47,684 nucleotides of DNA from Candidatus Hodarchaeum mangrovi. GTDB taxonomy: Archaea; Asgardarchaeota; Heimdallarchaeia; Hodarchaeales; Hodarchaeaceae. Below the pieces are notes generated by a model, which was not told the DNA's origin, did no database searches, and saw only the letters and a program-made list of their open reading frames with translations. The translations under genes and the position numbers were made by a program. Each line of letters begins with the position of its first letter. The stretch's first letter is position 1. Below, one piece after another: positions 4,927-42,840 of this stretch. Where the stretch lies: contig JAEOUE010000163.1 of assembly GCA_016839515.1 (NCBI GenBank), forward strand, positions 1 through 47,684, read 5' to 3'.

Positions 4927-5232
4927 ATGGGTGCTCTAAGCTTTTCTATCAGTCCTTGTACATCTAACCCTAGGCGATGGTATGTATATTTCTCAATTAA
5001 AAGTCCTTTTAACATGGAACAAGTGAAAAAGTCTATGAGTGGGAAAAATTTTACGATCTTAGCAGATACACCTAGTGTAGTAGTATTTCGTTCCTCACTC
5101 CATCGTTTAACATGGCATCGACAAGGTATGATTCAGATTGATATTTATGCATCAAATGGAACCAAAAAAGATAATATCGAACAGCTTATTAACCACATTT
5201 TGGAAGATAATTCGATTGAAATATTTGGGTGA
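4927..5232 (+). CDS. Small hypothetical protein with N-terminal PCTS motif, possible TBP-like alpha/beta fold
   Basis: 101-aa ORF that overlaps the next gene by 4 nt (GTGA). The pattern PCTS...helix...VVVFR...LTWHRQGMIQI resembles small archaeal proteins and ThiF/MoeB C-terminal domains (by eye). Confidence 0.6.
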   Translation: MGALSFSISPCTSNPRRWYVYFSIKSPFNMEQVKKSMSGKNFTILADTPSVVVFRSSLHRLTWHRQGMIQIDIYASNGTKKDNIEQLINHILEDNSIEIFG

Positions 5233-8175: not shown

Positions 8176-9621
8176 TTGTATAAATTCATGGTGAAATTGT
8201 CTATGACATTTACTCAACGATTCATTCACCCATATCTACCTCAAACTGATGCTCAAATTAAGAGTATGCTTGATGAAATCGGTATCTCATCTATTGAAGA
8301 ATTATTTTCAGATATCCCCATAAATATTAGGTTTTCAAAAGAGCTTGATCTTCCTAACATGCATTCCGAACAAGAAACCATCAATAGAATACGAAAAATA
8401 CTTTCCAAAAATATAGAAGTATCAAAAGTCTCATCATTCCTAGGAGCAGGAATTTATTATCAAGCAATTCCAACCATAATAAATGCTATACTTAGTAGAT
8501 CAGAATTCTATACAGCATATACCCCTTACGCTCCAGAAATTTCCCAAGGTATGCTACAAGGGCTGTGGGAATATCAATCGATGATTGCTGAATTAACCCA
8601 ACTGGATTTTGTAAATTCATCGATGTATGACATGGCTACAGCATTAGGGGAAGCTGCCTTAATGTGTACAAGAACAAATGGAAAGAATGTTTTTCTTGTT
8701 CCTTCTGCAATTCAACCTGAGCGATATCAGACTCTTGAAACCTATGCTTCTGGAGCAAACATTTCTGTTATTAAATATCCATTTAATTCAAATACAGGGG
8801 CTACAGATATTTCTGCTCTAGAAGAGCTTTTAAAAATGTATAAAGGAAAAATTTCAGGTGTATATACTGAACATCCTAATTTCTTTGGCGTGATAGAGAC
8901 AAAAATTAATGAAATCAGTAAAATTGTTCATCAAAACGATGCTCTTTTTGTTGTAGGAATAGATCCAATCTCACTAGGAATTTTAAAATCCCCTGGAGAA
9001 TATGAAGCAGATATCGCAATTGGAGAAGGACAATCTTTGGGATTACCAATGAACTTTGGTGGACCTTTACTTGGGCTTTTTGCTGTGAAAAATGATATAA
9101 AATTATCAAGAACAATGCCAGGCCGAATTATTGGGTTGACTACTGAAAAAAAATCAGAGAAACGAGCATTTATTATGACTTTGCAAACCAGAGAGCAACA
9201 TATTCGTAGAGAAAAGGCAACATCAAATATTTGTACTAATAATGCTCTTTGTGCCTTAGCATCGGCAGTTTATCTTAGTACTATTGGAATGAACGGTTTA
9301 AAACAGCTTGCGAGGATAAATATATCAAAAACAAATTATTTGATTCAACAAATGAAAAAGATAAAAATTCTTAGTGTGCCTGTTTTTTCAAATCCTCACT
9401 TTCGAGAATTTGTTTTCCAACTTAATAATGAAAATTTACAAACAGATTTTGAAAATCATATGTTTAAAAACGACATTTATCTAGGATATTCACTCAAAAA
9501 GTTTTATCCAAATCTTGGAACATCTTATTTATCTTCTGCAACTGAAATGACACAATTATTTGATATTCAACATTTTATATCACAATTGAATAACTTTCAA
9601 AATATTACTAGAGGTGCCTGA
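8176..9621 (+). CDS. gcvPA: Glycine dehydrogenase (decarboxylating) subunit 1
   Basis: HPYLP, FLGAGIY, EFYTAYTPYAPEISQG, NSSMYD, LQTREQHIRREKATSNICTN. True start is possibly ATG 8203. Confidence 0.96.
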   Translation: MYKFMVKLSMTFTQRFIHPYLPQTDAQIKSMLDEIGISSIEELFSDIPINIRFSKELDLPNMHSEQETINRIRKILSKNIEVSKVSSFLGAGIYYQAIPTIINAILSRSEFYTAYTPYAPEISQGMLQGLWEYQSMIAELTQLDFVNSSMYDMATALGEAALMCTRTNGKNVFLVPSAIQPERYQTLETYASGANISVIKYPFNSNTGATDISALEELLKMYKGKISGVYTEHPNFFGVIETKINEISKIVHQNDALFVVGIDPISLGILKSPGEYEADIAIGEGQSLGLPMNFGGPLLGLFAVKNDIKLSRTMPGRIIGLTTEKKSEKRAFIMTLQTREQHIRREKATSNICTNNALCALASAVYLSTIGMNGLKQLARINISKTNYLIQQMKKIKILSVPVFSNPHFREFVFQLNNENLQTDFENHMFKNDIYLGYSLKKFYPNLGTSYLSSATEMTQLFDIQHFISQLNNFQNITRGA

Positions 9622-11145
9622 ATGTATCGCCAAACTACTTGGGAAAAGGAACTTATTTTTGAGAAATCAAAACAAGGACGTATTGGATTCCTTGAAACTG
9701 ATCTTTCGGAGGAAGAAAATGAAATTTTTGACCAAGTCATTCAAACAATCCCTACAGACCTTATTAGAAATAAACCATTAGAACTCCCTGAATTGAGTGA
9801 ACTGGATGTTGTACGACATTATACTAGACTTTCTCAAATGAATTATGGGGTTGATTCTGGATTTTATCCTTTGGGTAGTTGCACAATGAAGTATAATCCT
9901 AAAATTTGTGATTTAGTTACCTCTTATCCGGAGGTTCAAAACATCCATCCTTATCAAGATCAAAATAGCATCCAAGGATGTCTCCAAATTATCTATGAAC
10001 TATCAAAATGGTTAGCAGAGCTTTCTGGGATGAATAAAGTAACTCTACAACCAGCTGCAGGAGCTCATGGAGAATATACTGGAGTTATGATTATTCGTAA
10101 ATATCATGAGATTAAAAAGAATCTATCTAAAAAGCTTGAAATAATAGTTCCTGATAGCGCTCACGGCACAAATCCTGCTACAGCCACCATGTGTGGATTT
10201 AAAACGGTTGTTATCCCTTCAAACGAAAAAGGCTGTGTTGATTTAGAAGCTTTACAATCGGCAGTGTCAGATCAGACAGCTGGTATGATGTTAACCAACC
10301 CAAATACTCTAGGAGTTTTTGAGTCCAACATAAAAGAGATTATTGATATAATACATGAAGTGGATGGATTAGCATATTACGATGGTGCCAATTTCAATGC
10401 GATCATGGGGAAGGTAAGACCAGGAGATATGGGGTTTGATATTGTTCATTTTAACCTTCATAAAACCTTTGCAACACCTCATGGAGGAGGTGGGCCAGGA
10501 GCGGGACCAGTGGGAGTAGTTGAACGTTTAAAACATTATTTACCAGTTCCTACAGTTGATTATAGTCCAGAGAAGGATGAATATTTTTTCCAATATGATC
10601 ATCCTTATTCAATTGGTAAAGTACGTAGCTATTTTGGTAATTTTTCTATCATCCTTAGAGCTTATGCCTACATTTTAAGATTAGGTAAGGAGGGATTACA
10701 ATCTGTTTCAGAAATGGCTGTTCTTAACGCTAATTACCTGAAAAGTATTACTCAAAAGATAAGAGGATTTTCTGTTCCCTATAGAGAAAATTCCTTTTGT
10801 ATGCACGAATTTGTTCTATCAGCCCGAACTTTAGGGAAAGAAACTGATATTTGTGCAAATGATATAGCTAAATTTCTACTCGATCATGGTTATCATCCTC
10901 CCACTATATATTTCCCTTTAATCATTCCTGAGGCTTTAATGATAGAGCCTACTGAAACAGAGCCAAAGGAAATGCTTGATGGTTACAAAGAGATATTAAA
11001 AAAAGTTTCTGATTACGCTTATTCTGGAAAACGGGATATTATCTTAGAATCGCCGAAAAATACTTCAGTTGGACTAATAGATGATGTCAAAGCAGCACGA
11101 AATCCAATACTTAGCTATCGGATGCTAAAAAAAAATAGAAGTTAA
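9622..11145 (+). CDS. gcvPB: Glycine dehydrogenase (decarboxylating) subunit 2
   Basis: YPLGSCTMKYNP, QPAAGAHGE, SAHGTNPA, HFNLHKTFATPHGGGGPG (PLP lysine). Abuts gcvPA. Confidence 0.97.
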   Translation: MYRQTTWEKELIFEKSKQGRIGFLETDLSEEENEIFDQVIQTIPTDLIRNKPLELPELSELDVVRHYTRLSQMNYGVDSGFYPLGSCTMKYNPKICDLVTSYPEVQNIHPYQDQNSIQGCLQIIYELSKWLAELSGMNKVTLQPAAGAHGEYTGVMIIRKYHEIKKNLSKKLEIIVPDSAHGTNPATATMCGFKTVVIPSNEKGCVDLEALQSAVSDQTAGMMLTNPNTLGVFESNIKEIIDIIHEVDGLAYYDGANFNAIMGKVRPGDMGFDIVHFNLHKTFATPHGGGGPGAGPVGVVERLKHYLPVPTVDYSPEKDEYFFQYDHPYSIGKVRSYFGNFSIILRAYAYILRLGKEGLQSVSEMAVLNANYLKSITQKIRGFSVPYRENSFCMHEFVLSARTLGKETDICANDIAKFLLDHGYHPPTIYFPLIIPEALMIEPTETEPKEMLDGYKEILKKVSDYAYSGKRDIILESPKNTSVGLIDDVKAARNPILSYRMLKKNRS

Positions 11146-17994: not shown

Positions 17995-18381
17995 TTAATC
18001 TAATAAGTTAGAATACGCTTCTGGAGTAAGCAATCGATCCCAATCCATTTCAAGATTAGATGGATTTATTTTTATTAACCAAGTTCCATAAGGGTCATTA
18101 TTAACTCTCTCTGGTTCAGATGCTAGAATTTCATTTATAGCAACAACCTCACCAGCTACGGGACAAAAAAGATCGGAAACGGCTTTTACACTCTCAATTG
18201 AACCAAAAATTCCTTTGAAATCAAAATTATCTCCAATATTAGGTAATTCTACATAAACTACATCTTTTAAAGTTTTTTGGGCATAATCTGTGACCCCAAC
18301 CAGAACCAAGTCGCCTTCAACCTTGGCCCAATCATGTTCTGCCAAATACTTCATATTTGGATCAACTTTATATTCTGTCAT
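17995..18381 (-). CDS. gcvH: Glycine cleavage system H protein
   Basis: HDWAK, VGVTDYAQKTLKDVVYVELP, SIESVKAVSDL (canonical lipoyl Lys), VNNDPYGTW. Confidence 0.96.
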   Translation of the reverse strand: MTEYKVDPNMKYLAEHDWAKVEGDLVLVGVTDYAQKTLKDVVYVELPNIGDNFDFKGIFGSIESVKAVSDLFCPVAGEVVAINEILASEPERVNNDPYGTWLIKINPSNLEMDWDRLLTPEAYSNLLD

Positions 18382-23099: not shown

Positions 23100-23888
23100 A
23101 TGCTCAAGGAAGGAGATCCAGTTAAAATTGCCGATTTTTCAACACGATATGTAAAATCGTGGATTCTATTCCTTAAAAAAGACTCAGAATTTTCAACACA
23201 TAGGGGAAAAATACTTCATAATGATATTATTGGGCATAAATATGGAGAAATTATTCCAAATCTTAAAGGCCAATTTGTAATTTTAAAACCAACACCTAGA
23301 GATTTCCTTCGCAAATTTAAATTAAAAACACAAATTATGTATGAAGATGATTCAGCAATTGCTTGTAATATAGCTGGTATAACTAATGGAATGGTTGTTG
23401 GGGAAGCAGGAACAGGTTCGGGCGCTTTAACACTTATTCTAGCAAGTTTAGTTGCTCCAAGTGGTCATATCTATTCATTTGATATTAATGAAGAACACCA
23501 AGAAAATGCAAAAAAGAATCTTGAAATGACTGGATTTAGAAAATATGTTTCTTTTACTATTCAAGATATTCGAACTTCAATAGAATTAAAGGATCTAGAC
23601 GCTTTTTTCCTTGATTTTTCTACTCCTTACGAAGCAATTAAATCTGTAGAACTTGCTCTAAAAGGAGGAGGTCATCTTATATGCTTCATCCCTAACTGGG
23701 GACAGGTTGAAGATACAGTTTATGAAATCCAAGAAAACCCTAATTTAATTCTTCAAGAATGCTTTGAATTAACTCGTAGGAACTTTATAATTGATCCAAG
23801 AAAGCATATCATGCGTCCAGTCTTTCGGGATCTTGTCTATTCCGGTATTCTCGTTCATGCAATTAAGATTTTAAGACCTTTGAGATGA
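23100..23888 (+). CDS. trmI: tRNA (adenine57/58-N1)-methyltransferase
   Basis: FSTHRGKILH, TQIMY, EAGTGSGALT, FFLDFSTP, FIPNWGQV. Confidence 0.93.
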   Translation: MLKEGDPVKIADFSTRYVKSWILFLKKDSEFSTHRGKILHNDIIGHKYGEIIPNLKGQFVILKPTPRDFLRKFKLKTQIMYEDDSAIACNIAGITNGMVVGEAGTGSGALTLILASLVAPSGHIYSFDINEEHQENAKKNLEMTGFRKYVSFTIQDIRTSIELKDLDAFFLDFSTPYEAIKSVELALKGGGHLICFIPNWGQVEDTVYEIQENPNLILQECFELTRRNFIIDPRKHIMRPVFRDLVYSGILVHAIKILRPLR

Positions 23889-23892
23889 ATAT

Positions 23893-24795
23893 ATGATAAT
23901 AATCCCAGATACAGTCTATAAAAGATTTTTGCAATTTGCACTGGAAAATGCACCACCTCATGACCGATCTAATTGGAAAGAATGTATCGGACTTGTTTTA
24001 GGTAAAATAGATAATGAATTAATGAGAGTCACGGATATTATCCCAATTGGATCTGGCACTTCTGTATTTGTAGATATAACTGACTATGAAAAAGTATTCT
24101 CTCTAATACCACCAAGTAAATTTGAACAAGGAGAAGTCATTATTGGATGGGCGCATACACATCCAGGTTTGGGCCTTTTTTTTTCTGGAACAGATAGCAA
24201 AACCCAACTCCTCTACCAAAGAATGCATCCAAAAGCATTTGGATTAGTATTGGATCCAACTGCAATATCATCTACAAAATCTGGTTTCAAAATATTTCGT
24301 GTTGATGATTTGGGAAGAGATTACTATGCTGTTGACTATCAGATGGATCCTATCTTCGATTTTCAAGAAGTAAAAAGAGAAATTATTTCACAATTAGCCT
24401 TATTTCCTGCATTACCCCCTAGTCCACAACGTATATCAAATACAGAAATCTCTTGGAAGAATATCAGAGTGATGGTTAGGGGCCCAACATTAATTCGAAA
24501 AAATCAATTATTTAAAGCCGCTTTAGTTTTAAAAACTACTTTAAATCAATTTATTCGGCTTCAATATCGGATAAAAATTACTGGAAAGATACAATCAATA
24601 GTTCCATTAAAGGATTATAATCAAAACCAAATTGTTCACGAAACTATTTCTCAAGGAACTCTTGCTATAATTCAATTTATAGCTAAGGATAGTGGTTTTT
24701 CTAGCATTATATTAACCGATGTAAAGATAACTGATTATACTCAAGAACTTCAAAAATCACCTGATTTGGTTTTAAATCTAGAGGTCCAAGAGTAG
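23893..24795 (+). CDS. JAMM/MPN+ metalloprotease (Rpn11/CSN5-like) with C-terminal beta-rich domain
   Basis: ECIGLVLG (catalytic Glu) and IIGWAHTHPGLGLFFSGTD (HxH-x7-S-x2-D), followed by TQLLYQ and GLVLDP. Confidence 0.92.
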   Translation: MIIIPDTVYKRFLQFALENAPPHDRSNWKECIGLVLGKIDNELMRVTDIIPIGSGTSVFVDITDYEKVFSLIPPSKFEQGEVIIGWAHTHPGLGLFFSGTDSKTQLLYQRMHPKAFGLVLDPTAISSTKSGFKIFRVDDLGRDYYAVDYQMDPIFDFQEVKREIISQLALFPALPPSPQRISNTEISWKNIRVMVRGPTLIRKNQLFKAALVLKTTLNQFIRLQYRIKITGKIQSIVPLKDYNQNQIVHETISQGTLAIIQFIAKDSGFSSIILTDVKITDYTQELQKSPDLVLNLEVQE

Positions 24796-28608: not shown

Positions 28609-29940
28609 TTAAATAATCTCGATAAAATCATAAGCTTGATGTAGAGAATCGAAGGCATAATGTAACTTTTGGAAGTCTGAACGAAAATCAGTGACTTCCT
28701 GAGCTATTTTGTCAGGATTAATTCTTTTTATTAAGAGCTTATGGAAGAACTCTGCTATTATAACCATATCACTTTCTTTCATTCCTAATCGTGTAATTTC
28801 CTGCGATCCAATACGGATTCCTCCTGGATTTCGATAATTACGCTTTTCAAGAATATCCCAAGGAAGAAGATTCCGATTTGCTACAATATGAGCTTTTTCC
28901 AATAACTGTTCAACTTCTGCACCTAATCCAATCGAATTCTGAAAGTTAGTTATATCTACCAATATTGTATGAGACTCTGTGAAATCTTTTTCGGGACACA
29001 CAACATGAATTCCCCGCTCATATAATGCCTGACCTAATGCTTTTGCATTTTTAATCACCTGTTTTGAATACTCTTTACCAAATTTTTTGAATTCTGCAGC
29101 TGCTATTGCTAAACCAGCAACATGCATTAGGTGATGATTTGACGTCATTCCTGGGAAAGCGGCTGTTTTAATCTTTTCTGCAAAATTATCATGAGCAGCA
29201 ACTACTATACCTTTTTGAGGTCCAGGAAACGTCTTGTGTGTCGATAATGTCATTGTGTCAGTTCCTTCTCTGATTGGATCCTGAAATTGACTACCAGCAA
29301 TCAATCCAGCAACATGTGCAGCATCATAATTGACATGAGTTCCAACCTCATGTGCGACAGGAGCTAATTCTTTTACCGGATGAGGAAATAGAAATACACT
29401 AGCACCAAATTGAAGTATTTTGGGTTTTATCTTACGTATTGCCTTAATTGACTCATCTACATCTATATTCAATCCATATCGATCGAAAGGTAAATAATCT
29501 ACATCAAGTCTGGAAACAGCTCCAGCAGTTCCACCAATGAAAGCACCAGTTTTAGCTTTATTTGGTCCAAAACTAATATGTCCTCCAACTGGAATAGATA
29601 TGGCAAGCATCTTATCATGGGCTTGAGCAAAGGCAGTATAAATGGTTAAATTTGCTACTACTCCAGAAATTGGCCGAGTATCAATGAAAGGTGCATCAAA
29701 AAGATCTTTCAATAATTTAATGCATAGATCTTCAATATCATCAAAATATTGATTACCTGGATATACACGTTCACCAATCCACCCTTCAGCATACCGATGT
29801 GATAGGTCAGTAATTGCTGCTTCCCTTACAGAAGGACTTGTTAAATTTTCACTTGCAATTAAAGGAATAGAGTTTTTCCAATATTCATGATGGGCTTTCA
29901 GAATATCTCGGATTTTTTGATGGTCAGGATCAATAGCCAT
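28609..29940 (-). CDS. glyA: Serine hydroxymethyltransferase (archaeal type)
   Basis: LIASEN, HRYAEG, GGHIS, YDAAHVAGLIAG, STHKTFPGPQKG (PLP Lys), GIRIGSQE. Confidence 0.97.
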   Translation of the reverse strand: MAIDPDHQKIRDILKAHHEYWKNSIPLIASENLTSPSVREAAITDLSHRYAEGWIGERVYPGNQYFDDIEDLCIKLLKDLFDAPFIDTRPISGVVANLTIYTAFAQAHDKMLAISIPVGGHISFGPNKAKTGAFIGGTAGAVSRLDVDYLPFDRYGLNIDVDESIKAIRKIKPKILQFGASVFLFPHPVKELAPVAHEVGTHVNYDAAHVAGLIAGSQFQDPIREGTDTMTLSTHKTFPGPQKGIVVAAHDNFAEKIKTAAFPGMTSNHHLMHVAGLAIAAAEFKKFGKEYSKQVIKNAKALGQALYERGIHVVCPEKDFTESHTILVDITNFQNSIGLGAEVEQLLEKAHIVANRNLLPWDILEKRNYRNPGGIRIGSQEITRLGMKESDMVIIAEFFHKLLIKRINPDKIAQEVTDFRSDFQKLHYAFDSLHQAYDFIEII

Positions 29941-30107: not shown

Positions 30108-31253
30108 ATGAGAACTCAATTGTATAATTGGCATTCAAAACATGGAGATTTGATAGAATTCGCTGGATTTGAAATGCCAGTAATGTTCTCCTCTATTAAG
30201 GAAGAGCATCTAGCAGTAAGAAATTCAGTAGGATTATTCGATGTTTCTCATATGGGAAGGATGTGGATTAGAGGTAAAGATGCAGAAAAGTTTCTAAATT
30301 TTTTAGTCCCTAGGGATCTTACAAAAACAAAAGTTGGAAGAGCATCTTATACCTTTATGCTAAACGAACAGGCTGGTTTCAAAGATGATCTTGTTTTTGA
30401 ACGAATCGAACAAAATAATTGGCTGATGGTCTGGAATGCAGGAAATTTAATGAAAATTAAGCACTGGATCAAAACTCAATATGAATTTGTAAATATATTT
30501 TGTCAGATAGATGTTAATCTAGTAGATATATCGACAACATCAGCTATGTTTGCTTTACAAGGACCAAAAGCCATTGATGTTCTGAAAAGAGTGTTTAATA
30601 ATTCAATCAATCTTCCTAACTCTTGGGGAGTAATTAGTATTACTTTTAATAACATAGATCTCATTATTTCTGGAACTGGATATACTGGAGAAGCAGGATA
30701 TGAAATAATTGTATTGAATACAACAAACAAAGATCCTTCAGCAGCTGAAATTATTTGGGAGCTCCTCCTAAATAATGGAGAGGAATTCAATATAAAACCA
30801 TGTGGATTAGGAGCACGAGATTCACTCCGCTTAGAAGCTGGATATCATCTATATGGTAACGATTTAAATGAGAGTCTTGATCCTATTACAGCAGGATTAT
30901 ATTTTCCCCCTTTTATACATATTTTGAAAGAAAATTTTGTCGGAAAAGCCGTGCTAGAGATTCTTGAAAAGAATAAACCAAAGAAAAAACGAATTGGGTT
31001 AATTGCGATTAAGAAAGGACCAAGTCCTAGAGGAGGACAAAAATTATATTATGAAGGAAATGAAATAGGGCAAGTATCTTCTGGTGGATTTTCACCATTA
31101 CTGGAATTGGGGATTGGGATGGGGTATATTGATGCTTCTGTTCCATCGGACTCTGGAATTGTTCAGTTTGAAGTTAGAGGAAAAATGCACGACGCACAAA
31201 TTAGGAATTTTCCCTTGTTTGACCAAAAAAAGTATGGAAAAAATAGAGGATAA
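30108..31253 (+). CDS. gcvT: Glycine cleavage aminomethyltransferase T
   Basis: FAGFEMPV, EHLAVR, GLFDVSHMG, ALQGPKA, TGYTGEAGYEI, GLGARDSLRLEAG. Confidence 0.97.
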   Translation: MRTQLYNWHSKHGDLIEFAGFEMPVMFSSIKEEHLAVRNSVGLFDVSHMGRMWIRGKDAEKFLNFLVPRDLTKTKVGRASYTFMLNEQAGFKDDLVFERIEQNNWLMVWNAGNLMKIKHWIKTQYEFVNIFCQIDVNLVDISTTSAMFALQGPKAIDVLKRVFNNSINLPNSWGVISITFNNIDLIISGTGYTGEAGYEIIVLNTTNKDPSAAEIIWELLLNNGEEFNIKPCGLGARDSLRLEAGYHLYGNDLNESLDPITAGLYFPPFIHILKENFVGKAVLEILEKNKPKKKRIGLIAIKKGPSPRGGQKLYYEGNEIGQVSSGGFSPLLELGIGMGYIDASVPSDSGIVQFEVRGKMHDAQIRNFPLFDQKKYGKNRG

Positions 31254-31265
31254 ATTTTCTTTCCT

Positions 31266-34200
31266 CTATCTCTTTCGTTTCTTTTCTTCTTTACCCGATT
31301 CACCCCCGATTGAACTTAATTCTGATAATGCATCAGAAAAAAGTTCAGCTAAATCAGGAGGTTTGACCTTTGTTTCTTTTGATAACTCCTTAGATTCCTC
31401 TTTAACTTCTCCATATGCTACTTTTGGAATATTCAATTCTTCAGAGCTTAAATATTGTTCATCCTCAGAAATTGCTCTGACTATTGAAGACAGAGAATCG
31501 GGAACTTCCTTTTTAAAGAGTGAATCTGCTGAAATCTTAGAACTTTCATCTTTTCTGGATTTAGAGATAATATTTTGTGTATCTGCAATTGCCTTTTCAA
31601 GAATTGCTATTTCAGGAATTGAATCGTCTCTTTCCTGATACTCACGTGGCTCTTCCACTTTTTCAGCTCCGAAAATCGGTTTAGAACTCTCCTCTTGAAC
31701 CATTCTTTCTAAGGGTGATAAATCTGGTGTATCTTTTTGTGTAATCTTCTTGGTTTCTGGAGAGAGAATTTCCTCTTCCTGTCCAGATTCTTTTCGCCAT
31801 AGCCGGCCAAATGAATCAACCTCCCATTCTCCTTCGTCAGGGTAATCCTGTAAAATTTCTTTTGGTTCACTTGGAGTTTGACTAGAGAATAATTCGGAGA
31901 TTTCGGAATCGCTTAATCCAGCTTTCATTTTCTTTTGAATAGGCTTAATTTCAGATTTCTTCACTTTTTCTTCAAATTGAGGTGAAAAAAGCTCACTAAT
32001 TTCGTCATCTGATAAACTTGCATCACTCACATCTTTCGATTTACTTATTGGGAGTTCAAGGATTTCATCATCGATTTTTGGACTTTTAACAACAGGTTTT
32101 TCAGTTGGAATCCCTTTCAATTCTTGAGTAGCTTCAAAAAAAGCTTTTTCTACTGAATCAAGAGAAGGAATTTTATCTTTCTCATATACTGGTTTTGAAT
32201 CAGTTGCTTGAGTTCCAATTTCATAACCTTTTATCACTTTTACAAATTCCTCATCTATCTTTTCCTCACTTAAATCTTCCGTCATATCAATCTTAGGGCT
32301 AACATCGGGTATAATAATTTGAGAAGTATCTACAATAATTGGTTTGGGTTTAACTCCAGATGAAGGTTCATCAGCTATCTGAGTTTCTATTTTTAAATCT
32401 GTTTCTACATCAATAATTAGTTCCTCTGGTTTTAGGACTCCTAACTGGCTCGCTCGTTTATCTAAAAGTGCTTTGAACTCTTTTTTATACTTTTTAGGAC
32501 TAATTCCGAGATTTTCAAGATATTTTTGAACTAAATCTGCCTTAATTTTATCTCTTTTTTCTTTTGCATCATTAAGAAGGTAAACTAAAATACCTGCCAC
32601 CTTTACATTTTGATTGATCATTGCACTGAGACGACAAATATAATCTAAATATGAATACGCAATTTTAAGATTATCATATTCAATAGCTGTTTCTATTAAA
32701 ATGTGAACAGTATTAAACAATGCATCTAGGTCTTCTAAACTTTCTAATTTTTCTAGGGTTTGTTGAAATGATCCAAGGGCTGTTGAATGATTATAGCGAA
32801 TTAGGTAACTTGTTAAGGCAGCAAGCAATTGAGCTTCATATTTTTCAGCGTTAAATTTCTTGCAAATTTGGATACCCCGTTTATAAGTTCGAATAGCTCT
32901 TTTAGGAGAGGGGTATTTGTCACCTAAATTAGTATAAACATTTACGATGCCTTCAAAATTATTTAATCGTCGATAAAATTCTGCAGATTGGTATGCGTAT
33001 TCAGATGCTAAATCTGGATTTTCAAATGCAACAAAAAGGGCAAATTTTTCTGTAATCTTCGCAGCTAGAAGATTACCCTCACTACCAAATCTTTTTGTAT
33101 CAGAAACCATTTGAAGAATTCGATCGGTATACTCTCGTGCAATTTCGAGTAATGAACCTGAAATTAATTCTTTTATAAATTGAAAAGCGTGAGGTAAAAC
33201 TTCAGAAATTGGCTTAGTGGTCTTTTCTAATAATGTAGCCATTAAACGGGAGGATGACGAAAATTGATTGACCCTAAAAAATTTGGGGGAATATTTTAAT
33301 ACCAATTCATCTCCAAAATTATTTTTTCCCTCTTCATATGGATCAAGGAGTTGATTTACAATAAGATCAGCATTTTCTTTTGATAAATTTTCGCTCTGAA
33401 GCATTAAATCATAGATCGGTTCTGCAAATTCAAAAAATTCTTCGATTTCTGGTTTCATAACTCTCTTGATAGTAAGCAATAATTCAGTATCAGGATATTT
33501 TTGGAGAATTGAAGAAAAATGCTTTTTTGTGACTTTTTTAAAATCTCCTTCCTGATGTCGGGTTGTAACAATTCGTTCAAATACTCTTATTGCAGCTTCT
33601 TTATTTGTTTCATAGGTCGTATTGAATATCATTTGGAGAAATTCAAGAGCTTTATCAGCTTTACTATCTTCTTCAAGAAGTTTTGCCATTTCAATGGCAA
33701 AGGTTGACGCAGACTCAGCATCTCCACGATCTAATGCATTTTTTGCGTAATTCTTGACAGCATTGATTGCTAATTTATACTCAGAATGACTTCTACCAAA
33801 ACGTATTATTAGATCGGTCATACGATTTGCATCTTCGTATTGACCATGTTCTAAAAATATATCACGATTCTTTTCTAAATATTTAATCACTTGAGATATA
33901 TCACCAAGTCGTTCATAATACCGAGCTGTCTGAACAATAAATAGATATGCATCTTGATACCTTTTCATTTCAAATTGTTTCTCTATCAAACGTGAGACAA
34001 TAGTTATACTCTTCTTAAAGTCCTGACGTGGTTCTAATTGTTTTAGGATCATATCAGTGATTTTTTGCGCCAAAATAACTGAGGACTTCAAAGATTCCTT
34101 TTGATAATCTATTAAACTTTCAATAGCTCCTTCCAAATCTCCCATATTATTATATGTTTCAGCTATTTTTTGAATAACCGCATAGAGAAGATCATAACGA

Positions 34201-36848
34201 TTTGAATTTTCAAATAAATGAGTTACAAATCTTCCCATATAATCTATTGCCCGAGTTTGGTCTTTATTTTTTATTTGAAGAGCAGTAAGCTGATCTAATA
34301 AGAAAGCTGCTCTATCTAGCTGATTTCCAAGAAGAAGTTCTTTTATATAATCCATTAATAGATCATAATCTGTTTCATCAGTCTGAAGCATCAGACTAGC
34401 ACTGTATTTCATATACTCAAAAATCATATCGAATTGTTTATGTTCTTTTAACTTATCAATAAAATTACGACAGAACTTAAGAACATCAGATATCTTTTTT
34501 TCTGTTAATAACTTACCAAGTTCAAGATTTATCATTTCTTGAGCAGTTAGAACAGCTTGACTTTGCAATAATTCATCTACATACTGAAGAACTATTTTTT
34601 CTCTCTTTTTTTGATCTTTAATAGTATCAAGAGCTGTTTGAATATAAACTTTTGAATGATCCTTCATTCCTAATTTTCCAAATAAATCTCCTAGAGCTAA
34701 TTGTTTTTCAATTCTCCTAGATTCATTCGAAGCATAAGCCTGATCTATTAAATTTACAACAAATTTTAAATAATCTCGTGCTGCATTCGATTCTTTTAGT
34801 TCTAAAAGTCCTTTTACAATCTCTAGGCTAAAATCAACAGCCTCTTCTATTTTGTTAAGTTCATAAAAGTATTTTATAGTCTTATTGCCATACTCACATG
34901 CTTTAATATGATTATCAGAATCCATTAAATAAGAAGAACCATCTTTTGCATATTCAAGAGCAATATCTTTTTTATTTTGGGTTTCAGAGATCAGAATTAA
35001 ACGATCAGCATATTTCGCAAATAATGGCTTATAATTATAAGTTTTAATTAACTTTAGAGTAGTTTCTAAGGATTCCATAAGCTCAAAATGAGCCTTTTTC
35101 TCATCTTGAGCATTAAACGCTTTATCCAAAAATTCACAAGCTATTTCTTGAAATTTTTCTATCTCTCTTGAAGATAATCCGATTTCTTCAGATTTACTAA
35201 GATATCGTATCAAGAAATGACCATATCGTAAAGAGTTTTCCCACATTACTACAGGTAGTCTTGCTTTTTCAAAAGAATCAACCTGCTTTTGAGCAAGATC
35301 AATTACCTTTTTTACATCTGAAATCTTAGTTTCATCTGCTAAAAAGAAATCCAAGGCTAATCCAATTAAATTAGCCGCACTCAAATTATTTTCCTGTTCT
35401 ATTAGAATTTTTATTGATTCATCCACGAATTCTAACGCATAGCTCGGTTCTAACTCTAATAATTCTTCAATTATTTCATCACGGAGCTTCCCTGCGTCGG
35501 AGGATTTTTTCTGTTCATCATAATAATAAACTAATTTTTTGCCAAATTGTAAAATTCCTTTAGCATTTCTTTCTTTTTGAAAACGTTTGTAGAGTACTTG
35601 AGTTACTTTAGTAGCTCCTTTCATATCTTTTTTGGATTCAAATTGTTCAATTACTTCAAGATAATGCCCAACCGCAACATTTATTATGATTTCTTCCATG
35701 GGCTTTTGAGAAAGTAACTCTATTGTCTGTAAGACTTTTTCAGAAGCATCATATAAATAACTAAATGAAATCTGGGGTATATCTTTATTGATTACCTTTG
35801 CGATTTCATCTTGATTAATCTTTACTTCGGTTAAAGGAGTTAATGAACCTGAAGGCAACCGAAATCGTAGATACCATTTTTCCATTTTTCTTAGAATAAT
35901 GCACACTGAGCCACCTGATTGTTCTATTTTCATTTCTTTCACAGGTAGAGGCTGCCCTTGACTTACAAATTCCTTAACTTTGACCAAGAATTTATCAAAA
36001 TCTTCAGCTTTTGTGTATTCTGAAGTATCTAATTCGGATAAATCTATAATAGATAAGTCATCTTCAACTATACTGCTCTCAACTTCTTGTTCTTCTTCTA
36101 TATAACTCTCAACTTTTTGTTCTTTCTGGATAGTATCTTCAGACATTGTAAATTCTTCAGGGTGTAGAATAATTTTCTCTATCTGTTCAGCAGAGTCATA
36201 AATGGCAGAAAAAGAGAGAAAATCGACCCCTGATTCAGTTATTAAAGTAACGATTTTATCTTGATTAATATTTTCCTTTGTAAAACTTTTTTTAATTAAT
36301 GGAGTGCTCCCTCTGAAAATAATTATTGCATATTTCCCTTCAACAGTGTAATAAATCTCGGCAAATCCCCCTTGGGAGTATGGCATCGTAAATTTACTAA
36401 GGAGTTTGTCAGTAACATCTATTTTGACTTTAGGTTCTAGTTTACTCTCTTCAACTATTTCAGTGGGTGTATCGCTTACCTCTTTATCCTTGTATTTATC
36501 CGATATTTTTCGTGATATTTCGTCCTTTGTAATTTTTGTCTCAACAGGATAAAATTCTTCCTCTACATGTAGTTTTGATGTCATTGATTTAATAGTTGAT
36601 AATAATAAATCAGCCACATCAAAAATTGCCGAAAAACTAAAAAATTCTACTCCTGCATCACTTAAAAGGTCAACCATTTTATCCTGATTTACTTGTGTGA
36701 CTGATATTGCGGTTGATTTTAGCTTTCTTTCATTCTGAAAGAACGTAAAAACATATTCATCTCGATTTAAATCCTTACGTACTTCACATTCGACTCCACT
36801 TGTTGAAGGAAGCTCTAAACGTACTGAATTTTCTTCTCGTGTAGCCAT
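31266..36848 (-). CDS. Giant (1860 aa) protein: three N-terminal repeat domains, TPR/alpha-SNAP-like solenoid and acidic disordered tail
   Basis: Three copies of a ~75-80 aa unit sharing (V/I)NQD...SFS(A/Y)(I/L)(F/Y)D, about 1070 aa of amphipathic helical repeats, and an E/S/K/P-rich C-terminal ~390 aa. Confidence 0.85.
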   Translation of the reverse strand: MATREENSVRLELPSTSGVECEVRKDLNRDEYVFTFFQNERKLKSTAISVTQVNQDKMVDLLSDAGVEFFSFSAIFDVADLLLSTIKSMTSKLHVEEEFYPVETKITKDEISRKISDKYKDKEVSDTPTEIVEESKLEPKVKIDVTDKLLSKFTMPYSQGGFAEIYYTVEGKYAIIIFRGSTPLIKKSFTKENINQDKIVTLITESGVDFLSFSAIYDSAEQIEKIILHPEEFTMSEDTIQKEQKVESYIEEEQEVESSIVEDDLSIIDLSELDTSEYTKAEDFDKFLVKVKEFVSQGQPLPVKEMKIEQSGGSVCIILRKMEKWYLRFRLPSGSLTPLTEVKINQDEIAKVINKDIPQISFSYLYDASEKVLQTIELLSQKPMEEIIINVAVGHYLEVIEQFESKKDMKGATKVTQVLYKRFQKERNAKGILQFGKKLVYYYDEQKKSSDAGKLRDEIIEELLELEPSYALEFVDESIKILIEQENNLSAANLIGLALDFFLADETKISDVKKVIDLAQKQVDSFEKARLPVVMWENSLRYGHFLIRYLSKSEEIGLSSREIEKFQEIACEFLDKAFNAQDEKKAHFELMESLETTLKLIKTYNYKPLFAKYADRLILISETQNKKDIALEYAKDGSSYLMDSDNHIKACEYGNKTIKYFYELNKIEEAVDFSLEIVKGLLELKESNAARDYLKFVVNLIDQAYASNESRRIEKQLALGDLFGKLGMKDHSKVYIQTALDTIKDQKKREKIVLQYVDELLQSQAVLTAQEMINLELGKLLTEKKISDVLKFCRNFIDKLKEHKQFDMIFEYMKYSASLMLQTDETDYDLLMDYIKELLLGNQLDRAAFLLDQLTALQIKNKDQTRAIDYMGRFVTHLFENSNRYDLLYAVIQKIAETYNNMGDLEGAIESLIDYQKESLKSSVILAQKITDMILKQLEPRQDFKKSITIVSRLIEKQFEMKRYQDAYLFIVQTARYYERLGDISQVIKYLEKNRDIFLEHGQYEDANRMTDLIIRFGRSHSEYKLAINAVKNYAKNALDRGDAESASTFAIEMAKLLEEDSKADKALEFLQMIFNTTYETNKEAAIRVFERIVTTRHQEGDFKKVTKKHFSSILQKYPDTELLLTIKRVMKPEIEEFFEFAEPIYDLMLQSENLSKENADLIVNQLLDPYEEGKNNFGDELVLKYSPKFFRVNQFSSSSRLMATLLEKTTKPISEVLPHAFQFIKELISGSLLEIAREYTDRILQMVSDTKRFGSEGNLLAAKITEKFALFVAFENPDLASEYAYQSAEFYRRLNNFEGIVNVYTNLGDKYPSPKRAIRTYKRGIQICKKFNAEKYEAQLLAALTSYLIRYNHSTALGSFQQTLEKLESLEDLDALFNTVHILIETAIEYDNLKIAYSYLDYICRLSAMINQNVKVAGILVYLLNDAKEKRDKIKADLVQKYLENLGISPKKYKKEFKALLDKRASQLGVLKPEELIIDVETDLKIETQIADEPSSGVKPKPIIVDTSQIIIPDVSPKIDMTEDLSEEKIDEEFVKVIKGYEIGTQATDSKPVYEKDKIPSLDSVEKAFFEATQELKGIPTEKPVVKSPKIDDEILELPISKSKDVSDASLSDDEISELFSPQFEEKVKKSEIKPIQKKMKAGLSDSEISELFSSQTPSEPKEILQDYPDEGEWEVDSFGRLWRKESGQEEEILSPETKKITQKDTPDLSPLERMVQEESSKPIFGAEKVEEPREYQERDDSIPEIAILEKAIADTQNIISKSRKDESSKISADSLFKKEVPDSLSSIVRAISEDEQYLSSEELNIPKVAYGEVKEESKELSKETKVKPPDLAELFSDALSELSSIGGESGKEEKKRKR

Positions 36849-38766: not shown

Positions 38767-39477
38767 TTACCTAGAAACAGGGAGATGAGGAATTAATAAT
38801 GCTGCTAACAACCCTATTTCACGATTTTGAGTATAAACGACTCCTGGACCACGATATCGAATCACAATACCTTCCCCACCGAGTATGAAACTCTTTCTTC
38901 CACCTACCTTCGAGACAGTATGGTTCATATGCGTTTGAAATGCCATCATCACGCCATTGTCGACCACTAGCTCTTCATCATCCTTAAGGTCATGGCGTTC
39001 AACAAAACCATAACCTCCAATCCAGACATCTCCTTCTGCTTCAGCATACAATTTTGTTAAAACAAGTCCTTCTCCACCAAGGACACTTTTAAATCCTCCT
39101 AACTGAGATGTAACTTCAATACTTGGAGTTCCACAGATATATGCATCTCTACTTAATGTCCATTCTTCGCCCTGATTAAGATGCAAATGTACAATGTCTC
39201 CAGGGGCACCATGGGCAAAAGCAACCATACCAGGAGGTGAACCATCAGGAAGAGTAAAGAAATTCTGAAACATTGATTCACCTGAAAATTTACGTTGTAG
39301 GCCCTTCATAAGGCCGCCAGCGGATTTTGTTTCCATAGAAATATGTCCTGACATATAAACCATAGCACCACCCTCGGCTCTAACCTGTTGTCCAGGCTGT
39401 TCAAGATGGATTCGGACTAAAGAAAACGCTGGTTTACCTGTTATTTCATATTTTAAAAAAGACTTATCTTTATTCAT
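38767..39477 (-). CDS. AIM24 / TIGR00266 family protein
   Basis: VRAEGGAMVYM, SGESMFQN, repeated GGEG motifs, VDNGVMMAF, GPGVVYTQNR. Confidence 0.92.
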   Translation of the reverse strand: MNKDKSFLKYEITGKPAFSLVRIHLEQPGQQVRAEGGAMVYMSGHISMETKSAGGLMKGLQRKFSGESMFQNFFTLPDGSPPGMVAFAHGAPGDIVHLHLNQGEEWTLSRDAYICGTPSIEVTSQLGGFKSVLGGEGLVLTKLYAEAEGDVWIGGYGFVERHDLKDDEELVVDNGVMMAFQTHMNHTVSKVGGRKSFILGGEGIVIRYRGPGVVYTQNREIGLLAALLIPHLPVSR

Positions 39478-39581
39478 GTTACCACCAAAATTAAATCTAT
39501 ATTCAAGGTAAAAATATTGAAGTATTAATAAGTAAGTAAACCAAAATTAGTAAAATTATGAAAGGAGAACCTCTATCAGCT

Positions 39582-39606
39582 AAAAAAAAGGGAGGTGAAA
39601 AAAAAA
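39582..39606 (-). terminator. Oligo-U tracts after the vWA gene (putative archaeal terminator)
   Basis: T9 and T8 runs on the minus strand immediately after the vWA stop. Confidence 0.5.
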
Positions 39607-40890
39607 TTAGGGGGATAGATTTTGTTTTCTTAATGAATACATTGTTGCGGTCATTTTCTTCCGATTTACCTTTGAATAACTTTCTTGATCCAACATATCA
39701 GACAAAATGCTAGTATTTGTACTTTGGAGCTTTTCTAATATTTGCGAACCCCCTGTTTTCTCTATTCTTTCCTTGAGCTTCTGTTGAAACTCATTCATTG
39801 TCCTTTGAGCATTTGAAAATTGTCCCTGATCTGCAAAATTAATCACTTCTTGGTGAATAAAAACTGCTTCAAGCAAATGAGCATTTTCGATGATCTCATC
39901 ATCTTCCTGTGCTAGATAATCTTCATTTTCAGTGTAGATAATTTCACAACTAGAATGTGTTTTATCCTCTTTTGGTATTCCACTTCCAGGAATCCAACAT
40001 ACTGTAAAATCTAGGATTTTTTGCTTAGAACCTCCTAGAGATTTTGGCGGAACTACAACATCGAGGATTAGAATGATTTCTTTTTCACTTCGTAAATCAC
40101 CGAGCTTAGTTGAATTGGAAAAACGGGATTCATAGGGAACTCCCAGGACTCTATTAATTTTTAAGCCTTCAATTCCCTTCCATTGTACTTCTAAATTATA
40201 AGCAACTGTTTCAAGTAATCCTTCAAACTCTTGTGCAATATATTTCGGTATATCATCTGCTGTCTCTATAAAATAGAATGTACCACCTGCAGAATCAGCA
40301 ATAGTAACAAGAAGATCCTCATCAAAATCTTCTCCAACCCCAAATGTGCTAATGCATATTCCTTTATTATAGATCCCTTCTACTCCAGATTTTATCGTTC
40401 CTTTATCAGTTATACCTTCATTCGCTAATCCATCTGACAAAAGCAAGATCATATTTCTAAACTCCTTATTTTTCCCCATTTCAACTTGCTTTACTCCTTC
40501 CAAGATTCCTCCATATAAATTAGTTCGACCACGATCACAAACATTCCTTATTTTGTTGATTGTTGATGTTTGTGATATTAAAACTCCAGAGGGTATCAAA
40601 TTCTCAATTAAGTGGTCATAAACTGTAAAAGAAAATATATCTGTGTTTGTAAGATTATTGACTATAAATTCCACAGCTTCTTTAGCTTTTTGGAGTTTTT
40701 TTCCTCTCATACTTCCTGATCGATCAAGTACAATACCTAAATTCAAAAAATTTCGTTGTTTAACAGGATTAAAGTTAATTCCGGTTATTTTAAGCTGAAC
40801 AAAAAGGTGTGTATTTCCCGATGCTAGAGCATAGGGGGAACTTAGAGTAACTTCTAACTTAAAAGGTTTTTTATGTTTCATACCATTCAT
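39607..40890 (-). CDS. von Willebrand factor A domain protein (YfbK/CLCA-like) with intact MIDAS
   Basis: LNLGIVLDRSGSM, GRTNL, LLLSDGLANEG, FGVGEDFDEDLL, GGTFYFI, followed by a beta-sandwich and a C-terminal helical bundle. Confidence 0.93.
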   Translation of the reverse strand: MNGMKHKKPFKLEVTLSSPYALASGNTHLFVQLKITGINFNPVKQRNFLNLGIVLDRSGSMRGKKLQKAKEAVEFIVNNLTNTDIFSFTVYDHLIENLIPSGVLISQTSTINKIRNVCDRGRTNLYGGILEGVKQVEMGKNKEFRNMILLLSDGLANEGITDKGTIKSGVEGIYNKGICISTFGVGEDFDEDLLVTIADSAGGTFYFIETADDIPKYIAQEFEGLLETVAYNLEVQWKGIEGLKINRVLGVPYESRFSNSTKLGDLRSEKEIILILDVVVPPKSLGGSKQKILDFTVCWIPGSGIPKEDKTHSSCEIIYTENEDYLAQEDDEIIENAHLLEAVFIHQEVINFADQGQFSNAQRTMNEFQQKLKERIEKTGGSQILEKLQSTNTSILSDMLDQESYSKVNRKKMTATMYSLRKQNLSP

Positions 40891-40902
40891 TTTATTTCTT
40901 CC

Positions 40903-41487
40903 TTATTTTGATCGCCTTTCAATTGATTTTTGTTCGTCATAAACTTTTTTACCCTTTTTTGTAGGCTTTATTTTTTTATTTGGCCTTCCAGGTTTGTTTT
41001 TTTTATAAATTTCTTTTTGATCACGGCTTCTTGTTGTTTTTGAATAATAATTTGTTTCTTCTATTAAATCTAATCTGTTCAACTCCCGTAAGCCTTGAAC
41101 AACTGTATTGGGGGATAATTGAGTGGAATCTTGAAGAGCTATAACGTTAATCCCCTCATTCAAGTTTATTTCTTCAAGTAAAATTCGTTGTGATCTTGAG
41201 AGCTGTGAAAACTCAGGATGAGACACCAGTTCCTTCTCTAAAATATTAAATCCCTCAGGGGTTAATGAGTATGATTTAGAATTTGGAGGATCTCTTGATA
41301 TCAGGCCTGCTAACTCCATTTCTTTAATTCTTCTATAAACGGTCGCAGTTGTTACCTTTCCCCTAAAAGAGTAAAAAGAACTCTCATTTATTTCTTGATT
41401 TATATCTGGGGCAGTTTTCTGAGGATTAGATTTAAGATAATTCAAAATTTCAAGCGTTCCTTTAGCAGACAATAAATCCAACATCAT
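40903..41487 (-). CDS. Tandem winged-helix DNA-binding protein
   Basis: HTH1: TLEILNYL...TVYRRIKEMELAGLISR...YSLTPEG. HTH2: QRILLEEI...LSPNTVVQGLRELNRLDLI...KPGRPNKKIKPTKKG. Confidence 0.85.
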   Translation of the reverse strand: MMLDLLSAKGTLEILNYLKSNPQKTAPDINQEINESSFYSFRGKVTTATVYRRIKEMELAGLISRDPPNSKSYSLTPEGFNILEKELVSHPEFSQLSRSQRILLEEINLNEGINVIALQDSTQLSPNTVVQGLRELNRLDLIEETNYYSKTTRSRDQKEIYKKNKPGRPNKKIKPTKKGKKVYDEQKSIERRSK

Positions 41488-41496
41488 AAATCATCC

Positions 41497-42840
41497 TTAG
41501 GTTTTTTGAGTGGGGTGAATTACCTCAGGAGGGGCTTGATTTATTATTTCTTGTCTTTGTATTAAATTTCGAATCTGATAACCACGAGGTATAGTTCTTG
41601 GAGATTTTCTCTCTTTTAAGATATCAATGTGTTTCTTAGAGGCATAGAAATGAGCTGGAAAATCATCAAACATAACACAGATACCCTCCCATTTGTTATC
41701 ATTGAATTTATACAGTGATCCACCTCCAGTTGCTTTGAGTGGTTTAACTTCTAAATCTTGAAACTCCTTCTTTAATATGTTATTTATATCTCCAGAAAAA
41801 CCTTTAGATATCTTTTCATGGAAAAAAACTTTATCAGTAAGAAATCCCTTCAATACTACTTCATTAAATTGAAGCCAAAGAGAATTAGACCCATAAATCT
41901 CTATTCCGAGTAATTTATCGTTATAGAAACATAACAAACCTACCTGATTGGGAATCATTAAATCAGGCTTTAACTTTTGAAATATTTCCGACATTTTTTG
42001 GCTTTTTTCTATCGATTTCTGTTGAATTTCGCGGTAGCTACTAGTAGGGGCTTCATCGATTCCAAGATTGAGAGCATCTGCAACCACTTCTATGGCATTC
42101 CAGACTGTTGACTGATCAGCTCCCATTGAAGCAACGTATCCCATTTGAGGGGTCATTCTTGTATCTGCAGATTTAAATTTAAATGTGGTTGCTTCGCCAT
42201 GTGAACTTTCGTAATTCCATCGCGATCGTTCAATACATCGCGCAGGTATTTTCAAGGGATTGTCCTTTGTACGACCTGATGGAATAATAATAGGTTCAAA
42301 AATGGTTCTGTCCTGTTTTCCTCCTTCAACCTGATGAAGGTAGGGTATGAGAATAGGTAATTCACTTAGATTTATTGCTTCCAACCATTCTACCGACTCA
42401 GCCCTCTCATTTTCTTGGATCCAACCCAATTCACGTTTCTCAGCTTCAGTAATTCCTAGCATTGAGAGGCTAGATTTTTGGATTATTGGATAAATTGTAA
42501 AACCTTCACAATATTTAGAGGATTCAAATTCATAGATTTCTGTAAAATTATATAAAATCTTCTTAAAACTCGCTTCTGTCATTTTATAATCACCATCTGG
42601 CTTAATATTCAATTTTTCTTTTAAATAAATTATAGATTTTTTATTATTAAATCGGACATACTTAATTAATTCTCTTTGTTCTAGAATATTTATAATTTGA
42701 AAGATTTTTGCAGTAGTTACTTTTTTATGCATCTTAAGAATAAGATATTCATTTAAATCATCAATAGATACTCTAGGATTTCCATTAAGGAATTCTAAAA
42801 TATCTAATGTGAGTTTTCCTTTTTGATTCATTTGGCTCAA
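41497..42840 (-). CDS. wHTH fused to an ARPP-1 (DUF6569)-like domain
   Basis: N-terminal ~80 aa wHTH, then VEWLEAINLSELPILI...EGGKQDRTI...IIIP...IPARCIERSRW, QSTVWNAI and NQVGLLCF...GIEIYGS, matching the ARPP-1 pattern (GxKQxR, CxExxRW, QxxVW). Confidence 0.8.
   Translation of the reverse strand: MSQMNQKGKLTLDILEFLNGNPRVSIDDLNEYLILKMHKKVTTAKIFQIINILEQRELIKYVRFNNKKSIIYLKEKLNIKPDGDYKMTEASFKKILYNFTEIYEFESSKYCEGFTIYPIIQKSSLSMLGITEAEKRELGWIQENERAESVEWLEAINLSELPILIPYLHQVEGGKQDRTIFEPIIIPSGRTKDNPLKIPARCIERSRWNYESSHGEATTFKFKSADTRMTPQMGYVASMGADQSTVWNAIEVVADALNLGIDEAPTSSYREIQQKSIEKSQKMSEIFQKLKPDLMIPNQVGLLCFYNDKLLGIEIYGSNSLWLQFNEVVLKGFLTDKVFFHEKISKGFSGDINNILKKEFQDLEVKPLKATGGGSLYKFNDNKWEGICVMFDDFPAHFYASKKHIDILKERKSPRTIPRGYQIRNLIQRQEIINQAPPEVIHPTQKT

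Follow-up and report, generated by a model that had tools for sequence, protein, structure and literature searches.

A giant modular protein of Candidatus Hodarchaeum mangrovi as a likely docking scaffold, with a split look-alike on another contig of its genome

Arrays of docking modules, rods of more than 1,000 residues and disordered tails carrying short motifs are common in the hub proteins of eukaryotes and rare in prokaryotes. Among the described proteins, IFT-A (8bbg_D and 8fgw_D), Ski3/TTC37 (4buj_B, 9g8r_B and 7qdr_B) and Ctr9 (7dkh_I and 6af0_A) are non-enzymatic and have an unbroken rod of approximately 1,000 residues that resembles tetratricopeptide repeats (TPRs), and CCT domains bind RFxV peptides. 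Here, we describe a gene of Candidatus Hodarchaeum mangrovi, a member of the Hodarchaeales, the order proposed as the closest archaeal relatives of eukaryotes. The gene lies on contig JAEOUE010000163.1 (assembly GCA_016839515.1), of which positions 1 to 47,684 were analyzed (the window), and encodes a protein of 1,860 amino acids composed of modules, a helical rod and a motif-bearing tail. This combination makes a non-enzymatic scaffold for assembly its most likely role, and we give a probability of about 0.6 to its being a soluble, multivalent docking or assembly scaffold of this kind. The main new finding is a split look-alike, encoded on another contig of the same genome.

The protein bears on the question of how far large multivalent scaffolds extend in the cells of Hodarchaeales. 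Few orphan proteins of the group are as large and as well conserved, and it unites a module array, a rod of more than 1,000 residues and a tail with conserved motifs. No description of the family was found in the literature on TPR proteins, solenoids and eukaryotic signature proteins of Hodarchaeales and other Asgard archaea or on the LC_3 locus. Neither the text of a 2026 preprint on solenoids nor that of a 2026 Nature Microbiology paper on structural eukaryotic signature proteins mentions it, and the supplements of both could list it. An earlier reading of this DNA, made from the letters and translations alone (the sequence-only reading), had called long solenoids uncommon in most archaea; this needs softening for Asgard archaea, in which alpha-solenoids make up approximately 1.5% of proteomes according to the text of the same 2026 preprint on solenoids.

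Modules, rod and acidic tail

The open reading frame (ORF) starts with ATG and runs for 1860 codons without an internal stop, exactly where the sequence-only reading had placed it, and at the sequence level the gene is real and constrained. The N-terminal part contains three homologous units of approximately 88 amino acids (residues 6-95, 148-238 and 301-385), so that the triple repeat proposed earlier was borne out by three methods. The modules matched each other by BLASTP, with E values of 3e-13 for R1/R2, 3.6e-6 for R1/R3 and 2.8e-6 for R2/R3, they scored 83-101 bits with a repeat hidden Markov model (HMM), and all three were recovered as similar folds by AlphaFold2. They have the common core NQD...G.-F-SFSA-YD-AE, in which two serines are invariant among 22 units from four lineages. 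The AlphaFold2 model of residues 1-400, built with the family alignment, had a mean predicted local distance difference test (pLDDT) value of 74.7 and a predicted template modeling score (pTM) of 0.37. Every module was predicted as a four-strand antiparallel beta-meander followed by a helix and a long helix, with pLDDT values mostly of 85-94, and the linkers at residues 92-140 and 236-265 fell below 50. Because the pTM was 0.37, no confident packing between the modules is predicted.

Members of the family carry 2 to 5 copies of the module and are 1,376-2,317 amino acids long. In a plain, rough neighbor-joining tree of the modules, drawn without support values, the first, middle and last modules clustered by position across lineages. 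Among 400 Asgard genomes, the module was found in two settings alone, within the giant proteins and in stand-alone ORFs that are 102-125 amino acids long, and 65 of the 65 longer proteins with a module were members of the giant family or their fragments. Foldseek with the model of the N-terminal module returned nothing at E≤0.001, the ESM Atlas gave no usable match to residues 1-400, and no PDB sequence matched the module profile below an E value of 0.8. When proteins of similar length were searched with the module profile, only 4 fragments of giant proteins came back; this search missed the stand-alone forms and is uninformative as to their range. No clear relative of the module emerged from the fold comparisons. 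The module is a previously undescribed domain family.

The AlphaFold2 model of residues 385-1475 was all-helical with a mean pLDDT of 86.9, in agreement with the solenoid that had been placed at 35690-32480 (residues 387-1456). DSSP assigned 57 helix elements to residues 386-1469, each of approximately 17 residues and with 3-residue turns between them, which therefore gives approximately 27 hairpins. When the rod profile was aligned with itself, off-diagonal alignments with E values of 1.4e-31 (a shift of one unit), 6.8e-23 and so on covered positions 8-1061 of 1,070, and the offsets clustered at approximately 78, 156, 233, 312, 392, 468 and 547 residues. Because of this tandem period of approximately 78 amino acids, the rod can be divided into 13-14 two-hairpin units, and its tandem antiparallel helix-turn-helix repeats, arranged as an extended rod, are those of the TPR-like alpha-solenoid superfamily. 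The best Pfam match in this protein was TPR_14, at 18.7-21.8 bits and thus below the cut-off of 23.5; TPR_14 matched 12 of 16 family members at E≤0.01, and TPR_12 was above its cut-off in the distant member P0048 (43.1 versus 30.1 bits).

In structural comparisons, Foldseek matched the rod with at least 500 chains at E≤0.001, with TM-scores of 0.09-0.23 and identities of 10-14%. The leading matches were TPR subunits of IFT-A, Ski3/TTC37 and Ctr9, with E values of 1e-10 to 2e-8, and further matches included Naa15, spliceosomal HAT proteins, separase and the clathrin heavy chain (E 1.2e-6). VIA Z values were obtained for a designed repeat (17.6), Pins (16.2), LGN (15.8), TTC7 (14.6), bacterial RapI and gamma-SNAP (both 14.4), IFT-A (13.9), Sec17 (13.8), VPS35 (13.3), TRAPPC8 (12.9), SKI3 (11.8) and Get4 (11.5). 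The ESM Atlas returned generic TPR clusters alone for residues 385-1475 (0.90-0.93), and no solved chain in the PDB sequences matched the family profile below an E value of 0.29. Eukaryotic scaffolds, SNAPs, bacterial Rap and designed repeats match at similar levels; the rod as modeled is a generic TPR-like solenoid, and no named trafficking family is singled out.

The low-complexity tail with its motifs was confirmed. Residues 1466-1860 have a net charge of -36 and an isoelectric point (pI) of 4.5, and the mean conservation of the tail was 0.47 versus 0.70-0.77 in the folded parts, with conserved islands at 0.82-0.90; the motif islands at 0.89-0.90 match the folded domains. In the EWEVDSFGRLWR motif, W1675, D1678, F1680, G1681, R1682 and L1683 are invariant in the alignment of 39 sequences. 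The hydrophobic residues of the terminal motif PPDLAELFSDALSELSSIGGE are placed at i, i+3/4, i+7/8 and i+11, a spacing that fits an acidic amphipathic helix. A regular expression for LSD.E..LF had no occurrence in the whole genome outside the scaffold gene, and those for the W and PDLSP motifs each had one chance-like match elsewhere. The terminal DLF..ALS.L motif reappears in the distant members P0053 and P0056-P0061. Three of these (P0058, P0059 and P0060) are five-module forms of 2,172-2,317 amino acids, one of them being OLS27512.1 of Heimdallarchaeota LC_3; in these forms, the motif is not terminal, and a conserved helical stretch of approximately 150 residues replaces the basic tip.

As the sequence-only reading had noted, the protein has no catalytic motif, signal peptide or transmembrane segment. 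Regular expressions for Walker A, HExxH, CxxC and GxSxG found no match in it, the N-terminus is polar and lacks a signal peptide, and the highest Kyte-Doolittle mean over 19 residues, located within module 1, was 1.49, with no transmembrane segment. NCBIfam had no family for the protein, and no NTPase family was matched in Pfam or NCBIfam.

A split look-alike and the range of the family

A search of the genome with module 1 led to an ORF of 98 amino acids on contig C337, which scored 85 bits with the module profile. Its divergent neighbor encodes a helical protein of 1,157 amino acids with sub-threshold TPR matches and the C-terminus ...EAFTDLFDGLLDDMTSLMDPNERKKRQKKK, ending in DLF..LL..M and a basic tip. 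The stand-alone module was found in 18 of the 22 genomes of the genus (this genome counted) and the 1,157-amino-acid protein in 16 of the 22, and the latter was found in this genus alone. In 11 genomes, the two genes are divergent neighbors, and in 4 they lie on separate contigs; 3 genomes contain the module gene without a match to this 1,157-amino-acid query, and the end of a contig truncates the large gene in one genome. The genome contains 10,120 stop-to-stop ORFs with a minimum length of 60 amino acids, and in 25 of them a loose form of the terminal motif was located no more than 40 residues from the end. Just two of these 25, the scaffold gene and the C337 gene, encode more than 500 amino acids and a basic tip, and each has the motif at a distance of exactly 16 residues from its C-terminus. 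A gap-free alignment spans the C-termini of the two proteins from end to end. The stand-alone module is basic (pI 9.4), and the last 60 residues of its 1,157-amino-acid neighbor are acidic. In our reading, the C337 pair is a second system that repeats the plan of module, rod and terminal peptide, with paralogy not proven, and this shared plan argues that the three parts work together.

Among 5.8 billion proteins, a word-indexed search that scored 7,999 candidates yielded 46 at E≤0.001 (query included), all with E=0. They were mostly 1,800-1,940 amino acids long and 42-66% identical, and their labels, where present, were mostly Hodarchaeales, Hodarchaeota or Heimdallarchaeota. The family alignment was made from 39 of the 46, with the seven partial matches excluded, and had a mean column identity of 58%. 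All 21 of the other genomes in the genus contain a full-length ortholog, with identities of 47-57%, and the full protein was matched in 33 of the 400 genomes of the phylum at E≤0.001. Matches were found in both of the 2 genomes from the rest of the order (26-27% identity), in 5 of 5 genomes of the family labeled Borrarchaeum/Sifarchaeum (approximately 25% identity) and in one further genome, and in 0 of the 31 genomes of the sister family of the same class. Three genomes of families f19 and f20, with E values of 1e-5 to 4e-4, were not accepted as members, and their matches were read as generic TPR similarity. The module profile, run over the 400 genomes, found the same 30 genomes as the full protein.

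A profile of module 3 plus rod was also searched with HMMER against 1.84 billion representative proteins and gave 124 matches at E≤0.001, of which 35 reached E≤1e-10 and 26 reached E≤1e-30. Twenty of the stronger matches were looked up, and eleven were labeled directly or via a cluster member. Ten of these eleven labels were Asgard (Hodarchaeales, Hodarchaeota, Heimdallarchaeota LC_3, Hermod-, Thor- or Lokiarchaeota, in the wording of the submitters), and the eleventh belonged to a weak match called "TPR repeat protein" and nothing more. A spread through bacteria, which the sequence-only reading had named as a point that would speak against it, was not seen, and among the strong matches looked up, those that carried labels were Asgard. 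As judged by these searches, the scaffold family does not extend beyond a few lineages of Asgard archaea.

Candidate functions

If the protein is a docking and assembly scaffold, the three modules, each with four strands and two helices (beta4-alpha2), would act as separate docking units on flexible acidic linkers, and the rigid TPR-like rod of approximately 27 hairpins would supply a long interaction surface and spacing. The acidic and probably disordered tail of approximately 390 residues would display Phe- or Trp-centered motifs as docking peptides for partners and would end in an acidic amphipathic helix and then the basic tip. The tip may also interact electrostatically with a membrane or with nucleic acid. 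We infer a binding role for the modules and motifs and a role of the protein in the assembly of other proteins. The sequence-only reading had proposed an Asgard cytoplasmic scaffold, and the modular, non-enzymatic, scaffold-type architecture supports this part of the proposal, whereas the link to trafficking or the cytoskeleton that was attached to it is unsupported.

Several observations weigh against a docking scaffold of this design. Members of the Borrarchaeum type have the modules without the tail, and in the two-module form the tail lacks Phe motifs; therefore, the tail motifs are not essential to the core function of the family. The comparison of the C-termini of the scaffold protein and the 1,157-amino-acid protein by hhalign gave an E value of 0.009, which is statistically modest for a single comparison. 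For the two rods, the hhalign probability was 15% (E 0.0018) by default and 65-80% in greedy local mode, a value inflated by the repeats, and with such weak support we do not claim homology of the rods. No RNA runs were listed as containing the scaffold gene, versus 20 DNA runs in 7 studies, and the gene neighborhood was judged uninformative.

The same parts could also serve self-recognition, in which the modules would bind the Phe-centered motifs of their own tail, head to tail, in the manner of CCT domains and RFxV peptides. This would lead to autoinhibition or to self-assembly into a multivalent network or condensate; for the split pair, it would mean that the 98-amino-acid module binds the motif at the end of its 1,157-amino-acid neighbor. 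The counts fit this idea, with three modules and three ELFS-type motifs here and one of each in the split pair, as do the CCT-like make-up of the module and, in the split pair, the basic charge of the stand-alone module next to an acidic C-terminal peptide. However, modules 1 and 2 are acidic, and some lineages of the family have no tail, and we regard self-recognition as a tentative and rather unlikely explanation. The same low weight is given to the more specific proposal that the modules are a new family of short-motif-binding domains, CCT- or polo-box-like, which would recognize motifs in their own tail and in the split paralog and form a network, a condensate or a closed/open switch. If self-recognition were true, a typically eukaryotic mode of organization would be present in the archaeal order proposed as closest to eukaryotes. 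It is doubtful that the protein is a proto-coat, tether or adaptor in trafficking or the cytoskeleton, akin to alpha-SNAP, Get4, clathrin/COP/IFT and TRAPP. The polybasic tip could touch membranes, and the text of a 2025 preprint describes protrusions and vesicles in cultured Hodarchaeales, for which proteomes were deposited, but also a simple internal cell structure. The data sets PXD059994 and PXD059995 are named there, and the cultured strains include HC1 and SC1. In the structural comparison with these eukaryotic proteins that the sequence-only reading had proposed, none of them stood out; all of them lie at generic levels among bacterial and designed TPRs, and Ski3, Ctr9, Naa15, HAT proteins, Rap, LapB, Pins/LGN and designed repeats score equal or higher. 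The low TM-scores and identities of the rod matches and the outcome of the profile search of solved chains also speak against such kinship. The combination of beta-propeller and solenoid that marks a protocoatomer was not found, as residues 1-400 are modeled as three separate four-strand modules and linkers with no propeller and no WD40 match, and there is neither a transmembrane segment nor a conserved GTPase, ESCRT or longin neighbor at the scaffold locus or the loci of its homologs. On present evidence, the scaffold protein does not document a trafficking or cytoskeletal system.

More improbable still is a nucleic-acid scaffold, which would parallel Ski3 and Ctr9 and in which the modules would be PUR- or Whirly-like binders of single-stranded RNA or DNA that act together with the basic tip; neither residues 1-400 nor any of 22 single modules matched the Pfam PurA/PUR signature at E≤1. 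A TPR sensor of a STAND or defense system, or a quorum-type peptide receptor like bacterial Rap, is the reading to which we give very little credence. The protein has no Walker A motif, NTPase domain, effector domain or defense-island context, the PADLOC defense models gave 0 families at E≤0.01, and the rod is approximately 3 times longer than the TPR domain of Rap. No enzyme fold or motif was seen, and a STAND NTPase with a TPR sensor was rejected because there is no P-loop domain and the N-terminus consists of the three beta4-alpha2 modules. Returning to the docking and assembly scaffold, which we prefer, experimental handles are available in the modules, the four or five short peptides and the split two-gene version.

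Flanking genes and comparison with known systems

The coordinates of all features are collected in Table 1. The TATA-like box TTATATAA may be the promoter of the scaffold gene, and the two oligo-T runs are a possible archaeal terminator. The neighbors of the gene are metabolic (GcvT, which is convergent, SHMT and an M20 peptidase): GcvT is convergent downstream in 9 of 11 orthologous loci, and the M20 peptidase is upstream in 3 of 11. Distant homologs have unrelated metabolic genes as neighbors, and SHMT is near one of them as well (locus L019). A Rab-like GTPase and an MPN protein had been reported in the window as not adjacent to the scaffold gene, and this is correct. The former, a Ras-family GTPase, sits 24 kb away without an evident link, and the JAB/MPN gene, 6.5 kb away, directly follows a gene for a GCD14/TrmI-type tRNA methyltransferase (window 23100-24795, +). 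In a single case, a 236-amino-acid Arf/Ras-like GTPase is encoded divergently upstream of a four-module homolog of the same order (L017, 5118-5828, +). The same-strand run at 38767-42840 (-), with genes for an ARPP-1 domain protein, a winged-helix regulator, a VWA protein and an AIM24-family protein, is possibly one functional cluster.

Table 1. Features of the scaffold gene, its split look-alike and other genes of the window (positions in the window unless a contig is given)
Feature	Position	Strand	Remarks
Scaffold gene, including stop codon	31266..36848	(-)	1860 aa; full-length orthologs 42-60% identical
TATA-like box TTATATAA	36893..36900	(-)	48 nt upstream of ATG, in 334-nt intergenic spacer
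Module 1, residues 6-95	36564..36833	(-)	beta-meander plus two helices; acidic, pI 4.8
Linker 1, residues 96-147	36408..36563	(-)	acidic, poorly conserved, low pLDDT
Module 2, residues 148-238	36135..36407	(-)	BLASTP, AlphaFold2, repeat HMM
Linker 2, residues 239-280	36009..36134	(-)	AlphaFold2, conservation
Helix 281-296 plus module 3, residues 301-385	35694..36008	(-)	abuts rod; module type common to all lineages
TPR-like alpha-solenoid rod, residues 386-1469	32442..35693	(-)	~54 helices, ~27 hairpins, ~78-aa period
Acidic low-complexity tail, residues 1470-1860	31269..32441	(-)	carries short conserved motifs
Tail motif LSDDEISELF, residues 1612-1621	31986..32015	(-)	family alignment; genome-unique to this gene
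Tail motif LSDSEISELF (second copy), residues 1645-1654	31887..31916	(-)	family alignment
Tail motif EWEVDSFGRLWR, residues 1674-1685	31794..31829	(-)	conservation 0.90
Tail motif TPDLSPLE, residues 1707-1714	31707..31730	(-)	alignment and conservation
Terminal acidic amphipathic motif PPDLAELFSDALSELSSIGGE, residues 1830-1850	31299..31361	(-)	conservation 0.89
Polybasic tip KEEKKRKR, residues 1853-1860	31269..31292	(-)	sequence, alignment
Two oligo-T runs (T6, T7)	31225..31243	(-)	directly past scaffold stop codon
Stand-alone 98-aa module (P0228)	G000 contig C337, locus L055, 4614-4907	(+)	module search
1,157-aa TPR-like protein (P0227)	G000 contig C337, locus L055, 956-4426	(-)	divergent neighbor of module gene
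Ras-family small GTPase, 165 aa	6672-7169	(+)	Pfam Ras 148 bits, Roc 95 bits
JAB/MPN protein, 300 aa	23893-24795	(+)	6.5 kb from scaffold gene
Glycine-cleavage/one-carbon genes: two GcvH, split GcvP, SHMT, GcvT	5229-5714, 8176-11145, 17995-18381, 28609-29940, 30108-31253		
Translin-family protein, 212 aa	11155-11793	(-)	Pfam Translin, E 1.9e-11

The scaffold protein shares its non-enzymatic, TPR-like rod with IFT-A, Ski3/TTC37 and Ctr9 but differs from them in detail, with TM-scores of 0.10-0.15, root mean square deviations of 29-40 A and identities of 11-13%. The VIA Z value of SKI3 was below those of many unrelated TPR proteins, and none of the three has an N-terminal module array. As far as the models go, the likeness is a resemblance of repeat type and not evidence of kinship. 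For the SNAP family (gamma-SNAP, 2ifu_A; Sec17, 9cru_G), the match spans a quarter of the rod and has no counterpart in sequence, and the SNAP score equals that of RapI (14.4) and is below those of Pins/LGN and the designed repeat. With regard to the modules, the closest known candidates include the CCT/PF2-like peptide-binding domains of WNK, OSR1 and SPAK (5g3q_B and 6fbk_A) and the PUR repeats (human PURA, 8cht_B; Drosophila Pur-alpha, 3k44 and 5fgp). The PUR repeats differ in that the scaffold modules are acidic, are separated by long linkers and show no predicted pairing or sequence signal. The C337 pair differs from the scaffold gene in being split over two genes, in having one module versus three, in the lack of a long tail and in its weakly repetitive rod, and resembles it in combining a homologous module with a TPR-like partner that carries a DLF-type motif and a basic tip.

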